Source of the DNA: Bacteroidaceae bacterium
GTDB lineage: Bacteria; Bacillota; Clostridia; Oscillospirales; Acutalibacteraceae
Reading direction: 5' to 3'
Assembly: GCA_963623075.1 (NCBI GenBank)
Contig: CAVFJZ010000005.1
Span: 7,713-71,712 of the forward strand
DNA: 64,000 nt
Below the pieces are notes generated by a model, which was given only the letters and a program-made list of their open reading frames with translations, did no database searches and was not told the DNA's origin. This document shows, in pieces, positions 10,749 to 21,662 of the stretch. Position 1 is the first letter of the stretch. Each line of letters starts with the position of its first letter. The position numbers and the translations under genes were made by a program.

Positions 10749-10770
10749 ACCAAACAAAAGGCCCGGGTCA
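10749..10770. repeat. Left arm of a 22/23-nt inverted repeat flanking the island (ACCAAACAAAAGGCCCGGGTCA)
   Basis: It is the reverse complement of 21732-21754 except for one extra T in the right arm. Confidence 0.8.
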
Positions 10771-10839
10771 AAGCCGGAGCGGATAAGGGATAATTTAAAA
10801 ACCATTGTCCATTCGTCTTCAAGCGGGTAAAAAAGAAAC

Positions 10840-10884
10840 AACGGTCACATTGGGAAATCCCCAGAGTGGCCGTTTTTCTTTTTT
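10840..10884. terminator. Hairpin terminator at the end of the R-M/Abi operon
   Basis: AACGGTCACATTGGGA-AA-TCCCCAGAGTGGCCGTT, flanked by an A-run and a T-run. Confidence 0.55.
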
Positions 10885-11776
10885 AGAACAGCCCTTGTAT
10901 TTTTGTCTGTATTAGTCCTGCCGCCAAACTACCTCCAGCATTTATCAAGAAATCCTTTAATCCAACAAGCAGGGCTTTTATTACACTTGGCTTCTTTTCT
11001 TGGGTAATTTTATCTCTGATTTCCGACAGCATTTCCAAGGCGGCGTCTTTATCCTCGCTCTGTAATTGTTCTTGAGAGATAGCGGCTTCAATTTCTGAAA
11101 CAGCTGTGTTTGCTTTATCATACGAAAAAGTCACATTTTCGTTTCCAGAAATTATTTGCATTCCTTTGCTTGGACCATTTATGACATTCGTTGCCCCATA
11201 ATAATTATTGACAGTCTGGGGCATACTTTTCGCCGTTTGTTTTTCCTCATCGCTGAACCGCATTCCTTCACCGAGAACGCCTTCTTCTTCGAGTTTTAGG
11301 GTCCATTCCAAAATAGTGTTTTTAACTTTTTCGACAATGTCCATTACCGAAGCACCGGAAATATGAAGAGCATATCTCATTGGCAAGGGAGAATCGAACA
11401 TCCGATTAAAAAGCTCCAATTGCTCACCAGAAAATTCAGATATCAATTCATTCTCAGCATTTTTGCAAAGAGTAATGATTTCTGAAATGGAATTTGGGAC
11501 TCTTTTCTCGCAGATTGCTTTCTCAAGCTCTGCGTCAGGTATTAAAGTAGGAATCCAGCCCTGATATGGATTGAAAGCCTTTAATACACCTCTGACTTTA
11601 CGATATTCAGGACATGTGTCCTGATTTGGGTAACCATTTAATTCATAAGAAATCCACTGATCAAACTCTTTCAATCCCAGCTTTACAGCAATCACATGAG
11701 CGCGACGAAGTATTTTTACAACATCACACTCTGATGACGTGATTTCATTTTGAAGATCAATAACAATACTGCTCAT
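10883..11776 (-). CDS. AbiTii-domain (abortive infection-like) protein with hydrophobic C-terminal helix
   Basis: The N-terminus (VVKILRRAHVIAVKLGLKEFDQWISYELNGYP...EYRKVRGVLKAFNPYQGWIP) matches my memory of the AbiTii domain pattern. GGAGG RBS overlaps the hsdR stop. Confidence 0.6.
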   Translation of the reverse strand: MSSIVIDLQNEITSSECDVVKILRRAHVIAVKLGLKEFDQWISYELNGYPNQDTCPEYRKVRGVLKAFNPYQGWIPTLIPDAELEKAICEKRVPNSISEIITLCKNAENELISEFSGEQLELFNRMFDSPLPMRYALHISGASVMDIVEKVKNTILEWTLKLEEEGVLGEGMRFSDEEKQTAKSMPQTVNNYYGATNVINGPSKGMQIISGNENVTFSYDKANTAVSEIEAAISQEQLQSEDKDAALEMLSEIRDKITQEKKPSVIKALLVGLKDFLINAGGSLAAGLIQTKIQGLF

Positions 11777-11785
11777 ATTTCCTCC

Positions 11786-14700
11786 TTACGCAGCCACTCT
11801 GTAGCGCGTGTAAACATATTCGTAAATACGCTGGCGGTATTCGGAAATGCTGATTTCGTCATAGCACTCCGGCAGTTCGGCCCAGAGCGTATCGCGGATG
11901 AGATTCTCCACAGCGGCTTTTGTTTCCTGCTTATCTGTCCAGTGATCAAGCTCCGCAATTTTAGCCTTTATCTTTTTCAGAAGGCTTGCAGCCACTTCCT
12001 TGATTTTCTTGATATCCGTCTTGGAGAGATCGTCCCGGAAAAGCATGTCGTACAGCGAAAGCTCCTCATCGCTCTCAAAGCCCTCGCGGACATACCGCTG
12101 TTCTTCCTGATCGAGACTATTGGCCAGATCCATCAGGTCCATAAAGGTTTTCTCAATGGTGGCACGATCCTGCTCACTGTTATAATCAGTGATGATCTGT
12201 TGATACCGCTCATAATAATCAATACGATCCGGATTATTGAAAAGCAGCCGGTCGAGCTTCTGCTGGATGATTTCCTCCAAATCCTTCATTACGAGGTTCT
12301 TTTTCTTCACCTTCGCAAATTCCCGGCGGAGCAAATCAAAGTCGATTGCACTGATGTCAAACCGGCGGGGCTCTTCTTTGACCATCATCGGTGCATCATC
12401 GATCTCCACATATTCGCTGATGATAGAATTAATTTCCACCATCAGATCTGTTGTATCAACGTGACGGCGCTTTTTCTGAAGCTCTCCGTAAATAGCGGCG
12501 ATGGCCTCGTATTCTTTGCGCGTCTGTCCGGTAATATCGTCACGATCCGTGTATTTCATCAAACGGATCAATTCAGATGCGTATGTGGAGAAGGATTTCT
12601 TATCTTCAATAGTACCGCATACGGCATTGGCGGCGGTCTGAAGAAGAGCCAGCTTCATAAAGTCAACTGCGGCCACAAGATCGGCAAGCTCAAAATCGCG
12701 CTCACGGAGGAAGGCTTTCGCCTTTTCAATCGTATCGAGAATACGGGCTATCAGCTCGTCCTTATCAACGGTAGGATCGCCTCCGGGCGTATTTATGTTC
12801 GCGGTGTAATCAGCCAGAGCTTTGCGGAGGGCTTTTACGATGCCAATATAATCGATAATCAAACCGTTACTCTTGCCTTCGTTCACACGGTTTGCACGGG
12901 CAATGGTCTGCATAAGAGTATGTGCCTTCAGCGGCTTGTCGAGATACAGGCAGGACAGGCACTTCACGTCAAAGCCGGTGAGCCACATGGCGCAGACGAA
13001 TACCACCCTAAGCGGATTGGATGCATCTTTGAACTCCTTGTCCAGCTCACGCTTTTCCATTTTCGCCCTGTGATATTTGATATCCAGATCCCATTTTTTG
13101 AAGGTCTGAATCTCATTCTGCTCCTGACTGATCACAACGGCCATTTCCGTTTCTTCCATCCATTTTAGCTTGCGCTCCAGTTCCTGCGCTTCTTGCTGCG
13201 TAGCCGTTTTAATTTTCGCTTTCAGAGCTTTGATTTCTTCTTTCCAGTACGCCTGAACGAAATTATACATACGGACACACGTGACTTTATTGAGGCACAC
13301 GAACATTGCCTTGCCGCTGGTCCACAGGTCGGAATAGTGACCGACAAAATCTTTCGCTATGGATTTCAGGCGAGGTTCCGCCGTCATCAGATGGATTTCC
13401 TTAGCAAATTCCGCTTCGAGCTTATCCTGCTGATCGACGTCGATATCAGCGTTTTCGATGGCGTCAAGTATGCGGTCGGTGATCTCCGGATTATGGAGAT
13501 CGAGTATCTTTTCGCCGCGATTCTCATAGTACAGCGGAACGGTCGCACCGTCCTCCACGGCGCGTTTGAAATCGTAAACAGAGATATAGCCGCCGAAGGT
13601 GCGCGCAGTGATATTGTCGCTGGACAGGAGCGGAGTGCCGGTGAAACCGATACGGGCTGCTGTCGGAAGCAGCTTCATCATGTTGTCGGCAAAGATACCG
13701 TACTGACTGCGGTGCGCTTCATCCGACATAATGATAATATCGTGATCCGGGTAAATCGGCTGTTCGTCCGACCTGTTGAATTTCTGTATCAGCGTGAATA
13801 TGAAGCTCGGATTGCCTTTCAACTTCGTGACGAGGTCACCGCCGCTTGTGGCGATAAACTGTGAGGCTTTCGTTTTACCGAGCAGACCGCAATTTTCAAA
13901 GGTGTCGCTGATCTGCTTGTTCAGTTCATCGCGGTCGGTCAACACCACGATTGTAGGCGATCCGGCAAACTTGCGGCGGATCTTCTGCGCGAGAAATACC
14001 ATAGAATAGCTCTTACCGGAACCTTGAGTATGCCAGAACACGCCCAGTTTGCCGTCGTTGAGCTTCCGTGCCTCGTATGCCTTGACCGCCTCGTTTACAC
14101 CGAGATACTGGTGGTTACGGGCAAGGATTTTTACCGTATTGCCGCCGGAGTGGTCATACAGGATGAAATTCTCCAGCAGATCAAGGAAGTTCTCTTTTTT
14201 GCAGATGCCGCGCAGCATCGTTTCCAAAGCTACGCTGCCTTGCTCTTTTTCGTCAAGGCGCTTCCATTCATGGAAGAATTCATACTTGCTGCCCAGCGTG
14301 CCGACCTTGGCCTCGGTGCCGTTAGACAGTATAAGGAAGGCGTTATAATAGAACAGATGAGGTATCGTATCCTGATAATCGGTATAATTATCATCGTAGG
14401 CGTTCTGTACGTCTACGGTGTTTTTCTTTAATTCCACGAAAAGGAGCGGCAGGCCGTTCACAAAGCCAACGATATCCGTGCGGCGGCGGTAGAGATCGCC
14501 GTGAATCTTCAGTTCTTTGACAGCGAGGAAGTGGTTATTCTCCGGGTGGAGGAAATCGATCACGGCAGCTTTCTTTGTTTCCGTTTTGCCGTCCGGACGC
14601 TTTACTGTCACGGGAATGCCGTCGCGGATTAGGAAATACTTTTCTTCGTTAACCTGAAGGAGCGAGGCTGTGGACAGGCGTTTTTCCAAAACAGCCTGTG

Positions 14701-14923
14701 CTTCAAGAATCTGCGTCTCGGTGATCCAAGGATTGAGCTTTTTCAGGGCAGCACGGAAATATCGCACAAGCAGAATCTCTTTGTACGATTTCCTGCCGAA
14801 GGTGCCATCGTCGCCCAGCACCTCCGTGTTATATGCAAATTTCACTTCCCATTGGAGCTCTTCCCGGAGAAGGTTTCCGGCACTTTCCTGCACAAGTATA
14901 TTTTCTGAATAATCATAGCTCAT
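11786..14923 (-). CDS. hsdR: Type I restriction endonuclease subunit R
   Basis: 1045 aa. Walker A (HTQGSGKS), DEAH box (MSDEAHRSQ) and typical HsdR N- and C-terminal regions. Confidence 0.93.
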   Translation of the reverse strand: MSYDYSENILVQESAGNLLREELQWEVKFAYNTEVLGDDGTFGRKSYKEILLVRYFRAALKKLNPWITETQILEAQAVLEKRLSTASLLQVNEEKYFLIRDGIPVTVKRPDGKTETKKAAVIDFLHPENNHFLAVKELKIHGDLYRRRTDIVGFVNGLPLLFVELKKNTVDVQNAYDDNYTDYQDTIPHLFYYNAFLILSNGTEAKVGTLGSKYEFFHEWKRLDEKEQGSVALETMLRGICKKENFLDLLENFILYDHSGGNTVKILARNHQYLGVNEAVKAYEARKLNDGKLGVFWHTQGSGKSYSMVFLAQKIRRKFAGSPTIVVLTDRDELNKQISDTFENCGLLGKTKASQFIATSGGDLVTKLKGNPSFIFTLIQKFNRSDEQPIYPDHDIIIMSDEAHRSQYGIFADNMMKLLPTAARIGFTGTPLLSSDNITARTFGGYISVYDFKRAVEDGATVPLYYENRGEKILDLHNPEITDRILDAIENADIDVDQQDKLEAEFAKEIHLMTAEPRLKSIAKDFVGHYSDLWTSGKAMFVCLNKVTCVRMYNFVQAYWKEEIKALKAKIKTATQQEAQELERKLKWMEETEMAVVISQEQNEIQTFKKWDLDIKYHRAKMEKRELDKEFKDASNPLRVVFVCAMWLTGFDVKCLSCLYLDKPLKAHTLMQTIARANRVNEGKSNGLIIDYIGIVKALRKALADYTANINTPGGDPTVDKDELIARILDTIEKAKAFLRERDFELADLVAAVDFMKLALLQTAANAVCGTIEDKKSFSTYASELIRLMKYTDRDDITGQTRKEYEAIAAIYGELQKKRRHVDTTDLMVEINSIISEYVEIDDAPMMVKEEPRRFDISAIDFDLLRREFAKVKKKNLVMKDLEEIIQQKLDRLLFNNPDRIDYYERYQQIITDYNSEQDRATIEKTFMDLMDLANSLDQEEQRYVREGFESDEELSLYDMLFRDDLSKTDIKKIKEVAASLLKKIKAKIAELDHWTDKQETKAAVENLIRDTLWAELPECYDEISISEYRQRIYEYVYTRYRVAA

Positions 14924-14934
14924 GCCGCCACCTC

Positions 14935-15780
14935 CTATCCTTCAACAATTTGCTTTTTAAACTCATCAAATGCTTTTTTGCGTTCTACCTGCTCTAATTC
15001 CATAAATGCAAGAAGACACATTTGATAAGTTTCGTCATACCAATGTTCTAATTCCCCCTTGTCAAGTTCGGATACGATTCGTTTATATTTTCCTTTATTT
15101 GAGGGATCAACATTGTTGTGTCGCAAATTCAAATTATTAAAGAGGAAAAACAGATCATCTTTCAAAGAAGATGAGATTTTCTGCAATTCTTTAGATTTTG
15201 CCTCAAGTATCTGGGCAAGTTGCAAAATAATATGTTTTTTCTTTTCAATGTCACCTTTAAGGGCATAATGATCATATTCCAGCACCTTGTATGATAGCTC
15301 TGCCGGAATTAGGTCGCTTTCTGATACAGCAATAGCTACAGGAGATTTTTCAACGAAGATCGTTTTTCCATCATCACTTGCAGATGTATATCCTATGGCT
15401 TCGATCACAAGTCGAATTTGTTCGAGGATAAATGGAATGTTCACTTCCATAGATACAAAGCCGCCATATCCTCCAGAAAAATTAGCCGCTTGCAGGCCGA
15501 AGAGCATATTTTGCAGATATTCACAAAATGAAACCAGATAATCAATATTAAAATCATTTGGCTCTGCTTCGAATTTGAAGCCATACTTTTGATCGAATTC
15601 TTCTATGCTAAGGCACGTCCCACGAAAATAAAAATGTGCAAAATTCTCTCCAAAAACTTCATATAAAGATTTCGTTCTATGATCAATGGCTTCTTGATGT
15701 AATATCGAATACAGCTTACGATACTCTTGTCTGATATCTACGTTGCCTTCCCTTAATACTTGTGCAAAAGACTTCCTCAT
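14935..15780 (-). CDS. Hypothetical protein embedded between hsdS and hsdR (no recognisable motif)
   Basis: 281-aa ORF. GAGGTG RBS lies inside the hsdS 3' end, and the junction with the hsdS stop reads TAAtATG. 11-nt gap to hsdR. Much more AT-rich than its neighbours. Confidence 0.75.
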   Translation of the reverse strand: MRKSFAQVLREGNVDIRQEYRKLYSILHQEAIDHRTKSLYEVFGENFAHFYFRGTCLSIEEFDQKYGFKFEAEPNDFNIDYLVSFCEYLQNMLFGLQAANFSGGYGGFVSMEVNIPFILEQIRLVIEAIGYTSASDDGKTIFVEKSPVAIAVSESDLIPAELSYKVLEYDHYALKGDIEKKKHIILQLAQILEAKSKELQKISSSLKDDLFFLFNNLNLRHNNVDPSNKGKYKRIVSELDKGELEHWYDETYQMCLLAFMELEQVERKKAFDEFKKQIVEG

Positions 15781-15781
15781 A

Positions 15782-16954
15782 TTACACCTCGATTTCGCTG
15801 CTCATCAGCTTGGGAAGCAGACGGTCACGGGCCTGTGCCGCAATTTCATTCTCCCTTTGCAATAACCGTATTCTTTCAAAATATGGGGAGACAATGCCGC
15901 AAAAAGCAGTTAGGACTCCTTCACTCGGGACTCTCAGCACCAATGCGTTTAAATCCTTGGCATAGACATGAGGTTGTGCGGATCCTTTTTGCAGAGAATT
16001 CAGTTTCATCGCATTGGTCTTCAGGAAGCAATAAACAAAAAGCAGGAATGGCGTGCTATTGCTATCAATGTAAGAGCAATCTGAGGCAAAAACATCTATA
16101 TTATAGAGCCTTGTAAAACCTGCATTAGCGCCAGAAGCACTAACCGTTATAACCGGAGCAGTTGTGTTTGCCTTGTTGTGATAATATGCTGGCTCCAATC
16201 CTCCAGCTACGACAGGGATATTTCCATCTGAAACTTGAGCTTTCGTTATTGTTTTTCCACGTTTAAAGACTGCAATATCACCGAGAGTACCATCCGCCCA
16301 TCCTTCCGGCACACCGTCAACGATAGGAGTATCCTCATATCCGGGGAAGCGGAGGTCGACAAACCACTCCTTATATAACCGCTGTGCCGCTTCTTCAAGC
16401 AGTTTGATTTGCTTCTGGTTGTTTTCGATGAGGTTGTCGTAGGCAGCAATAATAGCAGAGATTTTGCATTGCAGTTCGTAATCAGGTATATCAAAGGAAA
16501 ATGATTTTATAGTGTCTAATGTTATGCTTGCTTGATTGGCAGCACCTCTTGCTTCGCCAATTACATGTCCTTTGAAATCATCACAGCGCAATCTGTAATA
16601 CAGAAAATCCCTATCGACTCTTTCATTGGGGATTAGTTTAACTGCATTCTGATTCAATAAAGCTCCATCAAGATAATAAGGCACATGAACGACTTTGCCG
16701 ACAACAGATGCAGGGTTGTACTGCCAAGATCCAACGGTTTGAACAATTATATCTTTCTCGCGTAAAACGAAGTCAGAATAATTGACTCTCTCTCTTTCAG
16801 GATAGTATTTCAAATCTTCATCTGAAATACTGTCTAATGTAAAATTTGATACGCGTACTATTGGTACTCCGGACTCAACATACAAATCACTTTTAAACGC
16901 AAACCCCTTTTTTGTTGATACCAATTCGCCTACAGTAACTCTATTCCAACTCAT
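15782..16954 (-). CDS. hsdS: Type I restriction-modification specificity subunit S
   Basis: Two target-recognition halves separated by a conserved helical spacer (LIENNQKQIKLLEEAAQRLYKEWFVDLRFPG). The terminal helix is RDRLLPKLMS. ATGA overlap with hsdM. Confidence 0.9.
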   Translation of the reverse strand: MSWNRVTVGELVSTKKGFAFKSDLYVESGVPIVRVSNFTLDSISDEDLKYYPERERVNYSDFVLREKDIIVQTVGSWQYNPASVVGKVVHVPYYLDGALLNQNAVKLIPNERVDRDFLYYRLRCDDFKGHVIGEARGAANQASITLDTIKSFSFDIPDYELQCKISAIIAAYDNLIENNQKQIKLLEEAAQRLYKEWFVDLRFPGYEDTPIVDGVPEGWADGTLGDIAVFKRGKTITKAQVSDGNIPVVAGGLEPAYYHNKANTTAPVITVSASGANAGFTRLYNIDVFASDCSYIDSNSTPFLLFVYCFLKTNAMKLNSLQKGSAQPHVYAKDLNALVLRVPSEGVLTAFCGIVSPYFERIRLLQRENEIAAQARDRLLPKLMSSEIEV

Positions 16955-18816
16955 ATCCCCATCTCCTTCATATTCATTGAGATGGTATCCATCAAATCGT
17001 TGGATTCAGCCTGAAGGGACAGAAGTTCACGGTGAATCTCCGCCATACGCTCCGCAAAATCTATACCGTCATCCTCCACGGGAGCGACGCCCACATACGC
17101 GCCGGGTGTGAGCGACCAGCCCTTTTCTTCGATTTCGGCAAGTGAGGCCAGCTTACACAGTCCGAGTACGTCAGTATAAACACCGTCACCGAACTTCTCG
17201 TAGAGCCAGTGTGCTTCCTTGGCAACGTTCAGCATGTTCTCAATGTAGGCGACTCTATCGTCATACTCCTGCTGCACGCTCTTTTTGTCACGCTTCCCGG
17301 CAGCTTCCACTTCGGCTTTTGCGGCCTTTCGTAGTGTGGAGAGCTTTTCCTTCAGCGCAGAAACGATATCGGCAAAGGATTCCTGATATACAGCCTCTTT
17401 CAAATCGTCATTTTCAGCGGCCTCGGCTTCATCGTGCAGATAGTGGTGGTATTCCTGCAGCAGAGCCGTATACTTGTCGGTCTCACCGCGATAAAGCCAT
17501 ACGATGGCGTTCAGGTTTTTAAGCTGCCATTCGCTCCACTCATTCAGCGTTCGGTCCACAACTGTATAGTAATTCCGGGCATCGATGAACAGAACCTTAT
17601 CCCGGATTGCTTCGCCCTTCGCTTTATCGAAAAACCACAGGGAGCAAGGCAGCGATTTCGTATAGAAGAAATTATTACCGACGGAGATCATCACGTCAAC
17701 GTGACCGGTCTTGATGAGCTTTTCCCTGATATCCTTATCCTTGCCCTGACTATCCGTAGCAGAGGATGCCATAACAAAACCGGCGCGGCCATGCTCGTTC
17801 AGATAGGAATAGAAATAGGAGATCCATAGGTAATTGGCGTTGCCGACCTCTTTGTTCTTGTTTACGCTCGGCAGGCCGAACGGAAGACGTCCGGCGTTCT
17901 CGCAGGATTCGGCTTTGACCTTATCTACATTAAACGGAGGATTCGCCATGATGTAGTCACAGCAGCCGTTCAGGTTATGTGCGTCATGATAGAAGGTATT
18001 TGCCTCGTCTCCGGATTTGATAACACCCGTCAGGCCGTGCACCGCCATGTTCATCAGGCAGAGCTGAGCGTTGTACTCCACCTTTTCCTGTCCGTAGAAG
18101 GTCATGGTGCTGTTGGCATTCATACCGGCGGCGTTCACAAAATCTCCGCTCTGTACGAACATACCGCCGCTGCCGCACGCGCAATCGAGAAGAACACCCT
18201 GTTTCGGCTCAATGATGTTTACGATCATTTTTACGAGAGATTTCGGTGTGAAGAACACACCGTCATCAGAGGCGATGTTTTTAGCAAATTTGTTGAGGAA
18301 GTATTCGTAGATGCGCCCGATGATATCGCCGCCGACATCGTCAAGGGCGCTGTTATTGAAAATACGAAGAAGCTCTGCCAGCAGCTCGTCAGAGAAGTCG
18401 GTATAGCTTTTCGGCAAAACACCTGTGAGCTGTTCGCTTTGGTCCTCGATCAGCTGCATGGCGTTGTTGACCACTTCACCGAGACTGTTCATCGGGTGGC
18501 CGTCTTTATTGATAAGTCCTGCCGCCGCGATATTCTCCGGCAGATTGACAAGATACTCGTACTGCGCCTCTTTCGGCAGGAACAGTGCGCTCTTTGCGGA
18601 AAAGTCGCTGGCCTCCACGGGCATTACGCGTCCGCCGCGAGAGGGACGGTCTTTCAATATCTCGGCTTCGACCTTCTTGAAGCGGCTGTACGCATAGCGC
18701 AGAAAGATGAGACCCAGCACGGGCATACAGTATTGATTCGAGGTCAGCTTTGACCCGGCACGAAGGAGATCGGCGGATTCCCACAGTTCCGCTTCCAGTT
18801 TCCGTATGTTAATCAT
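16951..18816 (-). CDS. hsdM: Type I restriction-modification N6-adenine DNA methyltransferase subunit M
   Basis: HsdM N-terminal domain, SAM motif (LLDCACGSGGMF) and catalytic NPPF (IMANPPFNV). Confidence 0.93.
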   Translation of the reverse strand: MINIRKLEAELWESADLLRAGSKLTSNQYCMPVLGLIFLRYAYSRFKKVEAEILKDRPSRGGRVMPVEASDFSAKSALFLPKEAQYEYLVNLPENIAAAGLINKDGHPMNSLGEVVNNAMQLIEDQSEQLTGVLPKSYTDFSDELLAELLRIFNNSALDDVGGDIIGRIYEYFLNKFAKNIASDDGVFFTPKSLVKMIVNIIEPKQGVLLDCACGSGGMFVQSGDFVNAAGMNANSTMTFYGQEKVEYNAQLCLMNMAVHGLTGVIKSGDEANTFYHDAHNLNGCCDYIMANPPFNVDKVKAESCENAGRLPFGLPSVNKNKEVGNANYLWISYFYSYLNEHGRAGFVMASSATDSQGKDKDIREKLIKTGHVDVMISVGNNFFYTKSLPCSLWFFDKAKGEAIRDKVLFIDARNYYTVVDRTLNEWSEWQLKNLNAIVWLYRGETDKYTALLQEYHHYLHDEAEAAENDDLKEAVYQESFADIVSALKEKLSTLRKAAKAEVEAAGKRDKKSVQQEYDDRVAYIENMLNVAKEAHWLYEKFGDGVYTDVLGLCKLASLAEIEEKGWSLTPGAYVGVAPVEDDGIDFAERMAEIHRELLSLQAESNDLMDTISMNMKEMGI

Positions 18817-19039
18817 CCTTTTTCTCTCCTTCCGGGTTATCGGGTATAAACTCCATCATATCGTTGGGGGAGCAGCCCATAGCGTGGCAAATGCTCTCTA
18901 CCTTATCCAAGGCGATGTACTGCCCGTTTTTGATTTTTGTAATTATGTTTGCGGAAATGTTCGCACGGCGCATCAGCTCTGCATTGGAAATATCCCGTTC
19001 GATCATCATATGCATTAGTGGTTTATAACTCACGGCCAT
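18809..19039 (-). CDS. XRE-family helix-turn-helix protein (candidate controller of the R-M operon)
   Basis: 76 aa. HTH region ISNAELMRRANISANIITKIKNGQ. Overlaps the hsdM start by 8 nt. Confidence 0.8.
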   Translation of the reverse strand: MAVSYKPLMHMMIERDISNAELMRRANISANIITKIKNGQYIALDKVESICHAMGCSPNDMMEFIPDNPEGEKKDD

Positions 19040-19072: not shown

Positions 19073-19101
19073 AGTATATCACACTTATGTGAAAAAATCA
19101 A
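19073..19101 (-). promoter_or_regulatory. Sigma-A-type promoter for the XRE-hsdMS-orfX-hsdR-abi operon
   Basis: On the minus strand: TTGATT, a 17-nt spacer, then TGaTATACT (extended -10). It lies about 35 nt upstream of the XRE start. Confidence 0.45.
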
Positions 19102-19143: not shown

Positions 19144-19385
19144 TTTTTTCATTTTCTTTCGTTCAAAATCGCTCCTTTTGTCCAGTGGGTAGTGGAGAGA
19201 AGAAATTTTCGGAAACCGTCAGTTTTGGCCCTCCGCCGAGGCTACCAGATGAGGGAACGAAATTTTTCTTCAAAAAAAGCGGACCACATCGGCTGTTCAT
19301 GACCGGTGGGAAGTGAAGGAAAGATTTTTCTCCGAAAAAGCGGACCACTTGGATGGTTTTCCTCCAGTGGGTATTGAGGACGGGA
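19144..19385. repeat. Four degenerate direct repeats of about 60 bp upstream of the primase gene
   Basis: Units start near 19144, 19206, 19263 and 19325. The shared pattern is TTTTC..GAAA..CGGACCAC..CCAGTGGG.A.TGAGGA. The last two units are the most similar. Confidence 0.55.
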
Positions 19386-19414
19386 TAAGCCCTCCGGAAA
19401 GGATGATCAGAAAT

Positions 19415-20995
19415 ATGTATGAAAAGCTGCCACAGGAATTAAAAGAGCGAGGTGCTTTCTGCCTCTGGAAATATGAGGAGCGTGACGGAAACAGAACCAA
19501 GGTGCCGTACCAGACGAACGGCCTTTGTGCGGATTCCTCAAACAAGGCCACATTCACGGATTACGCAATCGCCGTCAGGCATAGGGCCGCATATGACGGT
19601 ATCGGCATAGGCGTTTTCGGGGACATCTGCGCCATTGACATCGACAGCTGTGTCGAGAACGGCGTGCTGTCGGATATGACCGAGGACATCATCGTCCGGA
19701 TGGATACCTATACGGAATACAGCCCGTCCGGGACCGGCGTGTGGATTCTGTTCAAAGCCTTGCTCCCGGCCTACAACAAGGATCGCTATTACATCAATAA
19801 CCGCCGGATCAAGCTGGAGGTCTATGTGGCCGGGTACACAAGCCGCTTTGTCACCGTTACCGGAAACGCCATCAGCGGCACCGGCATCGAGGAGCGAACA
19901 GACGCTCTGACGGAGGTGCTTGAGAAATATATGCGGAAGGCCGAAAAGCCTGTATCCCGTGTAGCCGCTCCGGGCAGCTATCTCTCCGATGAATCCGTTC
20001 TCCAGAAGGCTTTTGCCTCCAAACAAAGCGAGAAGTTCAAGGCGCTGTGGGACGGCATCATCCCGAAGGGCCAATCGCACAGCGAGGCTGACGCAGCCGT
20101 GTGTGCGATGCTGGCGTTCTGGTGCGGCGGCGATATGGAGCAGATGGACCAGCTGTTCAGGCAATCGGCTCTGATGCGGGATAAGTGGAACCGGGATGAT
20201 TACCGCACGGCCACACTTACCAAGGCCGTGGCGATGTGTACGGAATTTTACAAGCCCGTGGACAGGTCCTCGGCGGCGGACGATTTCAACGACCTCCAGC
20301 AGATCGTGGCCTCGCTCCATCCGGCGGAGAATGACCGATATCCGTGGAACGACATCGGCAACGGCAGATTGTTCGCAGACGTGTTCAAGGCCATCGCCCG
20401 TTTCGTCCCGGAGCGAAAACAGTGGCACATCTATGACGGAACACGCTGGTCTCCGACACCGGCTCTCTGAAGGCGATGGAGCTTTGCAAGGCTCTGGCCG
20501 ATGCGCTCATGCGGTACGCCCTCGATATCCACGATGAGCATAAGCGCAAGAGTTACATCGATTTCTGCCGTAAATGGCAGAGCCGCCATATGCGGATCAC
20601 GATCCTATCCGATGCACAGAGCGTATATCCGATCTCCATGCAGGAGTTCGACAGCGACCGTTTCCTGTTCAACTGCGCTAACGGTACGCTCGATCTCCGC
20701 ACGATGGAGTTCCGGGGCCACAGTGCAGAGGACCGGCCGACCAAGATCACACCCGTGGAATACGATCCCCACGCTTGGAGCGACCGCTACAGCCGATTCA
20801 TAAGCGAGATCATGAGCGGCGATACGGAAAAGGCCAAGTTCCTGCAAAAGGCCCTCGGCTACTCCGTCAGCGGCGATACCCGTTTCGAGTGTATGTTCTT
20901 CCTTTACGGCGAGACCACCCGTAACGGCAAAGGGACGCTGATGGAAAGCATTCTCCGGGTCATGGGCGATTACGGACGAGCCGTCAGGCCGGAGA
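19415..20995 (+). pseudogene. Prim-Pol / P4-family primase-helicase, frameshifted near 20450-20470 and 3'-truncated near 21000
   Basis: AEP motifs (AIDIDSC, YSPSGTG), a PriCT-like segment (SHSEADAAVCAMLAFWCGGD) and a D5_N/P-loop part (FLYGETTRNGKGT). The P-loop part continues in another frame after the TGA at 20468. Confidence 0.75.
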
Positions 20996-20999
20996 CGAT

Positions 21000-21662
21000 T
21001 GCGGCTCAAGGCTGTATCAGGTCCGGCACCGGGGCTGGACGCACGAACAGGAGATTTTCGTCTGCGCCAAGTACCGTAAGCACAAAGGAATGTGTACTCC
21101 GCACCAGATCCACAATGTTCAGGTTGAGGAAATCCTGCTCCGGGAACTGCGGCTCATCACCGCCTACGCTCGTGAGCACGAGGATGATTTCATTCAGCCG
21201 GTCACACGGCACAGCGAAAAAGAACTGACCCGGCAGCTCCGTGACAGCACTCGTGAACTTGCACAGGCAGAGGAGCGCATCGGCAAGTTGGACGGCATAA
21301 TTCAGCGGCTCTACGAGGATAATGTTGAGGGCAAGATCAGCGATGAGCGTTTTGCCAAGCTGTCCGCCTCCTATGAGGCCGAGCAGAATCAGCTGGAAAG
21401 CCGCAAAGTCGAGCTTACCGAGTTCATCGCTGCCTCAAAGGAACAGCGGCTGAACGTGGACTCCTTCCTCGGCATGGTGCGTAAGTACACGGACATAACG
21501 GAACTGACCGCTGAGATCATCCGATCCTTCGTGGAGAAAATCGAGGTCAAGAAACCGGAGAAGGTCCCCGGCACACGCACAAAAAAGCAAACCGTAGTTA
21601 TCTACTGGAATTTCATCGGGGCCGTTGAAATCTCCGTTGAATCGCAAGAAAAGACGGCATAG
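21000..21662 (+). pseudogene. Large serine recombinase, C-terminal fragment only (partial zinc ribbon, coiled coil, DUF4368-like end)
   Basis: The frame reads CGSRLYQVRHRGWTHEQEIFVCAKYRKHKGMCTPHQIHNVQVEEILL...KISDERFAKLSASYEAEQ...ITELTAEIIRSFVEKIEV. No resolvase catalytic domain precedes it. Confidence 0.75.

Follow-up and report, generated by a model that had tools for sequence, protein, structure and literature searches.

The 64,000-nucleotide stretch of DNA analysed here (the window; contig CAVFJZ010000005.1 of assembly GCA_963623075.1) carries a Type I restriction-modification (R-M) operon in which a gene of no recognisable family lies between hsdS and hsdR, and the question raised by this locus is what such a gene does inside a restriction operon. 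The gene, referred to here as orfX, is an open reading frame (ORF) of 281 amino acids with an ATG start at positions 14935-15780; its strand, which an earlier note on this DNA did not state, is the minus strand. orfX was found to be a facultative and exchangeable gene, sitting in a slot which carries known defence genes in sister operons. Members of its family recur, in different phyla, inside Type I and Type III R-M operons as well as inside other defence modules, and no constant partner accompanies them. With moderate confidence, orfX is read here as a self-contained single-gene passenger, probably an anti-phage protein of the abortive-infection type, which makes use of the signals of the operon in which it resides.

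The variability of the slot was revealed by searching metagenome contigs with the HsdR sequence of the window, which yielded 80 operons with HsdR 80-98% identical (L081-L160). Both hsdS and hsdR are visible in 70 of these, on which the following counts rest. The slot is empty in six operons, with a distance of only 10-15 nucleotides between hsdS and hsdR, holds orfX in four and holds one to four other genes in the remaining 60, these genes representing 36 distinct families. When only the ten operons of 96-98% HsdR identity (L081-L090) are considered, the slot holds orfX in three, is empty in three and is occupied by three other genes in four. Alternative cargo includes DRT4 reverse transcriptases, AIPR, PDC-S19/DUF3644, CAP12/Pycsar-type TIR, TIR_2, SEFIR, KAP NTPase, FRG, Fic and DUF3800 proteins as well as OLD/Gabija/AriA/AbiLi-like ATPases. 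The suggestion of the earlier note that the hsdS-hsdR interval is a landing pad is therefore borne out, several of the families being known defence genes. Since the 36 cargo representatives matched only 20 Pfam families (several being overlapping ATPase models), many of the cargo families are probably as unannotated as orfX, and such families are probably equally good defence candidates. An integral Type I subunit or obligatory accessory would be present in all close relatives at a fixed position; orfX is present in only 4 of 70 operons and in variable gene order.

Sequence comparison of individual operons showed that orfX was recently transferred between divergent operons. The orfX of the window shares 98.6-98.7% nucleotide identity with those of two operons (L002 and L119) in which hsdM is 78% and hsdR 75% identical, and 97.4-98.1% identity with those of four others (L003, L081, L084, and L085) in which hsdM and hsdR are 89-94% identical. 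Slot variation among close sister operons, together with this transfer, shows orfX to be a facultative cassette, recently exchanged at a recombination hotspot, rather than part of the R-M enzyme. Its base composition also sets it apart, with a G+C content of 35.7% (31% at third codon positions, GC3) against 49.2% (GC3 of 60%) for hsdR, 51.3% (63%) for hsdM, 42.0% (37%) for hsdS and 45.4% for the whole window. The G+C minima of the operon at the 60-nucleotide and 300-nucleotide scales both fall within orfX. Both the claim that orfX is the most A+T-rich segment of the operon and the recent acquisition that had been proposed for it are upheld by these figures, the gene being ~98.6% identical where hsdM and hsdR are only 75-78% identical.

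The distribution of the family was determined by a scan of one genome per species, in which 151 genomes with an orfX relative were found and 80 loci were kept. Contexts were assigned with hidden Markov models built from the hsd genes of the window, clustering of neighbouring genes, and Pfam and PADLOC scans, with the following result:

Type I R-M in the same operon as orfX: 29 of 80 loci
Type III R-M with SNF2/HKD helicase and DUF4391 in the same operon: 8 of 80 loci
KAP-NTPase (PDC-S20) and TIR-like gene, beside a Tn916-type integrase: 6 of 80 loci
EcoRI-type methylase and GmrSD_N-HNH: 3 of 80 loci
Type I genes nearby, in a separate operon: 1 of 80 loci
Other or unclassified, including solo transcription units: 33 of 80 loci

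The hosts are mostly gut and rumen Clostridia. Relatives at 97-99% protein identity to the window are found in Ruminococcus bromii ATCC 27255 and in an uncultured Eubacteriales metagenome-assembled genome (MAG), and further hosts include Treponema, Bacteroides, Atopobiaceae, Deferribacteraceae, Desulfovibrionaceae, Phascolarctobacterium and the archaeon Methanocorpusculum. Linkage to R-M recurs in orfX clades which are only 25-35% identical to one another, and independent metagenome contexts agree with the context classes obtained at species level. The position of orfX (X) relative to hsdM, hsdS and hsdR (M, S, and R) varies, with MSXR, RMSX, XRMS and XMS orders being observed; solo transcription units also occur (for example L056, L053, and L071), and outside R-M operons no constant partner gene was found. 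The neighbourhood survey that had been called for by the earlier note was thus carried out on 80 loci. In the 109 tightly linked operonic neighbours (80 species), the top Pfam families were Methylase_S, HSDR_N, ResIII, N6_N4_Mtase, GmrSD_N, HTH, DUF4391, RhuM, KAP and HNH, that is, restriction and defence families, and no housekeeping family appeared. Many family members lie on elements resembling integrative and conjugative or integrative and mobilisable elements (ICE/IME), beside integrases, relaxases, Mob_Pre or primases. The family was absent from the INPHARED phage and the plasmid collections searched, and six loci were found in 2.9 million IMG/VR contigs, one of them an R-M-S-orfX operon.

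Several recurrent arrangements of the family were observed. At eight loci (L040, L047, L048, L055, L057, L061, L063, and L074) the gene order is a helix-turn-helix (HTH) gene, an SNF2/HKD helicase (PADLOC C3a139), DUF4391, orfX, Mod, a further gene and Res, the gene between the Type III Mod and Res being unannotated and ~200-235 amino acids in length. This operon is a Type III R-M variant with an extra helicase and DUF4391, in which orfX is inserted before Mod. The most abundant member of the family, from Gemmiger (L161-L168, from Gemmiger formicilis and metagenome contigs), is always located in a compact five-gene island comprising a 50-amino-acid gene, an EcoRI-type methyltransferase, GmrSD_N-HNH, orfX and a 480-amino-acid gene with a weak Apea-like HEPN match. 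The left flank of this island is usually a sugar-utilisation locus, with Mob_Pre and a DUF3987 primase there instead on one contig, which suggests a small mobilisable defence island. Another member is found in an ICE-borne HsdR-M-S-orfX operon. Two Methanocorpusculum MAGs (L036 and L041) have an hsdM-hsdS-orfX arrangement, indicating transfer of the embedded arrangement across domains within gut ecosystems.

A word-indexed search returned 369 full-length relatives of orfX, all described as "hypothetical," and an exhaustive profile search extended the family to 1,231 clusters at 50% identity, of which 909 scored E ≤ 1e-10; nearly all have 260-300 amino acids. The protein is acidic (pI 5.2) and predicted to be soluble, with no transmembrane or hydrophobic segment. 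A first AlphaFold2 model had a mean predicted local distance difference test score (pLDDT) of 84 and was searched against the PDB and BFVD; a second, built from an alignment of 109 sequences, reached a pLDDT of 93 with a predicted template modelling score (pTM) of 0.81 and was searched against the PDB. The latter model is mostly α-helical, with one β-hairpin at residues 131-144 and a C-terminal helix of 40 residues. The number of its homologues and the pLDDT-93 model show orfX to be a real gene and no chance ORF, in agreement with the earlier judgement that it is clearly coding and plausibly helical. The Foldseek comparison proposed earlier, now performed, gave no relative in the PDB for either model nor in BFVD for the pLDDT-84 model. 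For the pLDDT-93 model the best E-value against the PDB was 0.059, with template modelling (TM) scores ≤ 0.18 among the 50 matches listed, and over both models the matches consisted of G-protein-coupled receptor and coiled-coil noise (TM ≤ 0.21 among the matches listed). Sequence searches were similarly empty: orfX had no match in Pfam, NCBIfam, PHROGs, PADLOC or PDB sequences, and PADLOC v2.0.0 returned no family at E ≤ 1, hence no HEC or PDC model. When 109 diverse members were scanned singly against Pfam at E ≤ 1, only scattered helical-bundle noise was obtained (Rrn6_HB, V-SNARE, and SusD-like_3). The absence of a recognisable motif, noted before by eye, therefore holds for the family in these collections, and a search of the literature on the motif and on Type I-embedded genes of gut Firmicutes found nothing specific to it.

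Conservation within the family is uneven. In 190 sequences with a median identity of 34%, the near-invariant residues are mostly polar, namely R2, E19, E87, N91, Y169, H171, K181, E193, N215, R220-H221-N222-N223, E245, Y248, D249 and Y252, and ~20 polar residues remain near-invariant in sequences down to 25% identity. Mean conservation is ~0.55 in the C-terminal half and ~0.35 in the variable N-terminal half. Such a pattern suggests an enzyme. A few metagenome sequences depart from the usual architecture: in three (P0143, P0147, and P0191) an identical orfX C-terminus is joined at differing breakpoints to HsdR-, HsdS- or HsdM-like N-termini, and in another (P0235) the N-terminal part of orfX (~125 residues) is joined to an unrelated C-terminal sequence. 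These were rejected as domain-fusion architectures and judged to be assembly chimeras or deletion/recombination derivatives of the hotspot.

A number of identities were considered for orfX and rejected. For a HEPN RNase, the conserved arginines (R2, R53, R220, and R267) and histidines (H171 and H221) give no R-x(4-6)-H spacing, and HEPN families were not hit by orfX or by the 109 members in Pfam scans. For a P-loop nucleoside triphosphatase, a GxxxxGK[ST] motif is lacking, G54 and G176 being the sole conserved glycines; AAA, ABC and SMC Pfam families gave no match with orfX or the 109 members at E ≤ 1. An HTH or C-protein controller was rejected as orfX matches no HTH family and the HTH gene of the operon is a separate ORF (18809-19039). 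For a Type II toxin of a toxin-antitoxin (TA) pair, no recurrent small partner was found beside orfX outside R-M operons, where most neighbours are singletons, and the slot of the window holds orfX alone; an all-against-all phmmer comparison of adjacent genes (for example for a remote Apea-like HEPN) likewise found no hidden conserved partner. A phage-encoded protein, serving in anti-defence or superinfection exclusion, was rejected on the basis of 0 tblastn hits in 50,697 INPHARED records and the scarcity of loci in IMG/VR.

The position of orfX in the window, described previously as wedged between hsdS and hsdR, agrees with the ORF found there and with the Pfam assignments of both flanking genes. 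The operon is tightly packed and lies entirely on the minus strand in the order HTH-hsdM-hsdS-orfX-hsdR-abiT, with orfX as fourth gene. Its features, in the direction of transcription, are as follows:

19073..19101, minus strand: promoter-like site, TTGATT-17-TATACT with extended TG, lying ahead of the first operon gene (consensus match only)
18809..19039, minus strand: Cro/C1-type HTH protein of 76 amino acids, first gene (Pfam HTH_26, 1.1e-16)
16951..18816, minus strand: hsdM, Type I methyltransferase of 621 amino acids (Pfam N6_Mtase, 3.8e-70; HsdM_N, 1.1e-13)
15782..16954, minus strand: hsdS, Type I specificity subunit of 390 amino acids (Pfam Methylase_S, two stretches)
15785..15790, minus strand: GAGGTG, Shine-Dalgarno sequence of orfX, formed by the last hsdS sense codons GAG GTG; upstream boundary of the cargo slot
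14935..15780, minus strand: orfX, 281 amino acids (ORF call; no family or fold match)
14924..14934, minus strand: 11-nucleotide spacer GAGGTGGCGGC with the hsdR Shine-Dalgarno sequence; downstream boundary of the cargo slot
11786..14923, minus strand: hsdR, Type I restriction subunit of 1045 amino acids (Pfam HSDR_N, SWI2_SNF2, ResIII, T1R_D3-like)
10883..11776, minus strand: AbiTii/AbiTi-type protein of 297 amino acids (Pfam AbiTii, 4e-46; PADLOC AbiTii, 4.7e-49, and AbiTi, 2.6e-10)
10762..10778, minus strand: hairpin and subsequent T-run resembling a terminator, downstream of the AbiT gene (consensus scan only; the sole sizeable one on this strand)

The junctions define the slot precisely. 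The hsdS stop codon TAA (15782-15784) is separated from the orfX ATG by a 1-nucleotide spacer and, because hsdS ends GAG GTG TAA, the putative ribosome-binding site of orfX sits inside hsdS, as had been noticed previously. The 3′ end of orfX is GGA TAG (stop 14935-14937), followed by GAGGTGGCGGC and the hsdR ATG. orfX is thus predicted to be translationally coupled between hsdS and hsdR. In the empty sister operons the 3′ end of hsdS reads ...GAGGTGTAG, directly followed by GAGGTGCTCGT and the hsdR ATG, with a second copy of GAGGTG preceding hsdR in the spacer equivalent to that of the window. Each cargo starts 1-5 nucleotides past the hsdS stop, with the hsdS-terminal GAGGTG as Shine-Dalgarno sequence, and ends just ahead of that of hsdR.

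With regard to the remainder of the operon, promoter-like sites are no more numerous in the region than expected from shuffled sequence, and for this reason the site at 19073-19101 is no more than consistent with an operon start. The only other terminator-like matches on the minus strand inside the operon (18712-18724 and 17778-17790) are minimal, with a 5-pair stem and a 3-nucleotide loop. The HTH gene overlaps the start of hsdM by 8 nucleotides; the same overlap is found in the sister operons, at the head of which the HTH gene is conserved. In the PDB the protein matched only 3tyr, a "transcriptional regulator" (3e-6), and did not match any RptR structure. It is likely to be the regulator of the operon, in a position analogous to that of RptR (PMC12255303). 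The AbiT gene starts 9 nucleotides downstream of hsdR and its product is AbiTii-like in its N-terminal and AbiTi-like in its C-terminal part. No copy of it was seen in the 80 sister loci, where 15 other families take the position after hsdR in 23 cases; there is therefore a second variable cargo slot after hsdR, of which AbiT is the passenger here. A 472-amino-acid ORF antisense to hsdR (11750-13168, plus strand) probably does not represent a gene but arises spuriously from the high GC3 of the hsdR coding frame. Directly upstream of the operon is a region of 56% G+C content (19313-21662, plus strand) with a primase-like ORF at 19313-20470, which matched the PDB primases 7ola and 6a9w (1e-28 to 1e-25), followed by several overlapping, apparently broken ORFs. 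This region has the appearance of a mobile element in decay beside the R-M island.

The genomic context most probably points to a defence function for orfX, and a possible course of events can be outlined. The gene would be driven from the promoter of the R-M operon and translated by means of the hsdS-terminal GAGGTG as ribosome-binding site, and its product would provide a second layer of immunity that does not depend on the R-M enzyme. A cue of infection may be sensed by the N-terminal half (~residues 1-130), which diverges fast, while the conserved helical C-terminal half, with its invariant polar set Y169/H171/K181/E193/N215/R220-H221-N222-N223/E245/D249/Y252, might catalyse a reaction or bind a small ligand. 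As to the chemistry, a metal-dependent hydrolysis acting on a phosphoester or a nucleotide could be guessed at. Several points weigh against such a defence role or its details. Genes of the mobilome and of other functions are also found among embedded genes (Payne et al., bioRxiv 10.1101/2024.01.29.577857), and the enrichment for defence genes holds only for the classified loci, as the neighbours in 33 of 80 could not be classified. The homology and fold searches yielded no biochemical activity. The putative split into sensor and effector is drawn solely from unequal conservation, and the suggested phosphoester hydrolysis is speculation from a weak motif resemblance which failed a profile-profile test.

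Other explanations of the locus have to be considered alongside this one. The earlier note had seen in orfX an R-M-associated defence or regulatory component, and its place in an R-M operon stands. An accessory role, such as restriction alleviation, assistance in assembly or a delay of HsdR activity while a new host is being colonised by the operon, would fit its location directly upstream of hsdR, to which it is apparently coupled, in the MSXR arrangement, as well as its acidic, helical nature and long C-terminal helix. However, this part of the earlier claim was not sustained and is very unlikely, because orfX is absent from most sister operons, with operons of 98%-identical HsdR lacking it or carrying unrelated genes instead, and because its position varies (in RMSX operons it is the last gene) and it occurs in other defence modules and in solo transcription units, where no R-M is present. 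In addition, orfX has no HTH or other DNA-binding signature, and the operon already has an HTH regulator of its own. A role as guard of the R-M system is attractive because the Type I/III linkage recurs, R-M of Type I or Type III being present in the orfX operon at 37 of 80 loci, in clades 25-35% identical. In this model, following the logic of PrrC and RloC, orfX would be latent under an ATP-dependent R-M enzyme and become toxic once a phage anti-restriction protein disables the complex, the envisaged triggers being DNA mimics (for example Ocr or ArdA) or Stp-like peptides. The predicted coupling of its translation to that of hsdS and hsdR would suit expression in matching stoichiometry, and PrrC is itself almost exclusively Type I-embedded (bioRxiv 10.1101/2024.01.29.577857). 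On the other hand, the operon is free of R-M genes at more than half of the loci, solo copies and stable pairings with KAP/TIR or GmrSD-HNH occur, the position of orfX relative to the R-M genes is not fixed, and the protein has neither a P-loop nor a known nuclease motif. The slot also accepts 36 unrelated cargo families, and therefore embedding alone implies no dependence on the R-M enzyme; a guard function is considered unlikely.

Similarly low in likelihood is that orfX is selfish cargo outside defence, with a stabilisation or addiction function or an activity against plasmids or ICEs, hitch-hiking in the hotspot with no anti-phage benefit. The conserved flanks drive the hotspot, so that any gene could be captured, many members reside on the ICE/IME-like elements described above, and more than 50% of embedded genes are without an assigned function (bioRxiv 10.1101/2024.01.29.577857). 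Against this, identifiable co-cargo consists overwhelmingly of defence genes, orfX has no antitoxin-like partner, and the family is nearly absent from phages (none in INPHARED) and absent from the plasmid collections. A specific biochemical identity was suggested by a match of the family profile to PDB 2q73/2q5z (E = 0.05) over the E245-D249-Y252 helix (ELEEWYDELYQMCLLAF vs. AEELYDVLYYVCALAN), relatives of these chains being labelled as MazG pyrophosphohydrolases (PF03819). The C-terminal helices of orfX might accordingly represent a highly divergent all-α NTP pyrophosphohydrolase (MazG/HisE-like) acting by nucleotide hydrolysis. The aligned residues E245, D249, Y252, L256 and A258 are near-invariant, the second MazG motif (EExxD) has a counterpart in E245...D249, and hhalign with a narrow MazG profile gave P = 4.6e-4. 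However, hhalign gave a probability of only 33% with that profile, and of 7.7 and 1.8% when a broader one of 41 sequences was used, with ~35-54 columns aligned across runs. The first acidic motif (EExGE/EExxE) has no acidic counterpart in orfX, where NNxNIRHNN stands instead, no MazG entry was among the 50 Foldseek PDB matches listed for the pLDDT-93 model, and neither MazG nor a related family recurred in the 109 members against Pfam at E ≤ 1. The lead was therefore rejected on account of the low probability, the missing first motif and the lack of a MazG fold, and such an identity is regarded as very improbable.

A self-contained defence passenger thus remains the preferred reading of orfX. 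If the gene protects against phages, a family of ~1,230 clusters, prominent in Clostridia of the human gut and rumen and also present in Treponema, Bacteroides, Desulfovibrionaceae and methanogenic archaea, would join the prokaryotic immune repertoire, with a fold and chemistry not predictable from structures solved so far. A bolder proposal, which is put forward only tentatively and is somewhat doubtful, is that orfX would be the first example of a class of single-protein immune effectors with a new mechanism. Its confidently predicted fold would have no relative among solved structures, and its invariant Y/H/K/E/N-RHNN-E/D/Y site would have a chemistry new to phage defence; the protein would have been recruited repeatedly into ATP-dependent Type I/III operons across bacteria and archaea and might fire when restriction is evaded. 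The operon family itself constitutes a natural discovery platform, in which no fewer than 37 cargo families alternate in the slot between the hsdS stop and the hsdR Shine-Dalgarno sequence of closely related operons. Both the embedding of defence genes in Type I R-M operons and the hsdS-hsdR interval as a hotspot are already published; the advance here is one more well-documented candidate and a clear view of cassette exchange. Among R-M-embedded candidates, orfX is distinguished by a large unannotated family and a confident yet unmatched predicted fold.

Of the known systems, PrrC and RloC are R-M-linked latent suicide anticodon nucleases with P-loop ATPase domains of the ABC/Rad50 type and a defined nuclease domain. 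RloC, of ~800 amino acids, has a Rad50/SMC-like ATPase with a coiled-coil insertion and is also linked to Type III R-M. orfX resembles both in being a single gene in or linked to Type I (for RloC also Type III) R-M and a possible second line of defence. Unlike PrrC, it lacks a P-loop or known nuclease motif, and its family is in Type I operons at 29 of 80 loci, with 43 of 80 having no R-M in the operon; unlike RloC, it has 281 amino acids in a family uniformly of ~260-300 and no SMC/AAA match. With MazG it shares the acidic helix motif E-x3-D-x2-Y...L-A, which aligns with the metal-binding helix of that family, whereas the similarity lacks statistical support (hhalign 1.8-33%), the first acidic motif has no counterpart and no structural match was found. 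In all, orfX shows none of the tested defining features of PrrC, RloC, HEPN, HTH regulators and TA toxins, and of those of MazG has the second acidic motif only.

The closest parallels are to be found in the embedded cargo of other operons. Type I, BREX, DISARM and Hma systems often contain embedded genes, many of which are defence systems (Payne et al., bioRxiv 10.1101/2024.01.29.577857). An island of enteropathogenic Escherichia coli (EPEC) comprises a small HTH gene (repressor RptR), hsdM, hsdS, DarTG2, hsdR and an extra downstream gene, in which DarTG2, embedded between hsdS and hsdR, is experimentally active and its site was called a potential recombination hotspot (PMC12255303). TgvAB, in a Type I operon of V. 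cholerae VPI-2, is also experimentally active (PMC11411939). The operon of the window shares the order of small HTH gene, hsdM, hsdS, cargo, hsdR and downstream gene with the EPEC island. The hsdS-hsdR interval is thus already a probable hotspot in the literature (PMC12255303; bioRxiv 10.1101/2024.01.29.577857), and the slot proposed for DarTG2 is the one seen directly here by comparison of sister operons. DarTG2 and TgvAB differ from orfX in being two-gene cargos of known chemistry (DNA ADP-ribosylation and GmrSD-type restriction, respectively), whereas orfX is a single gene with no recognisable domain. Compared with candidates proposed from embedding, orfX is unlike them in matching no PADLOC v2.0.0 model (HEC, PDC or other) and in belonging to a family found mainly in gut and rumen MAGs rather than in RefSeq isolates. 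It is like them in being on the same strand as, and nested in, a Type I operon, in being neither mobilome nor housekeeping, and in having homologues which also occur non-embedded and beside other defence systems. By the embedding criterion of Payne et al., orfX is an embedded gene in Type I operons (in the window and at 29 of 80 loci) and in Type III operons (8 of 80).

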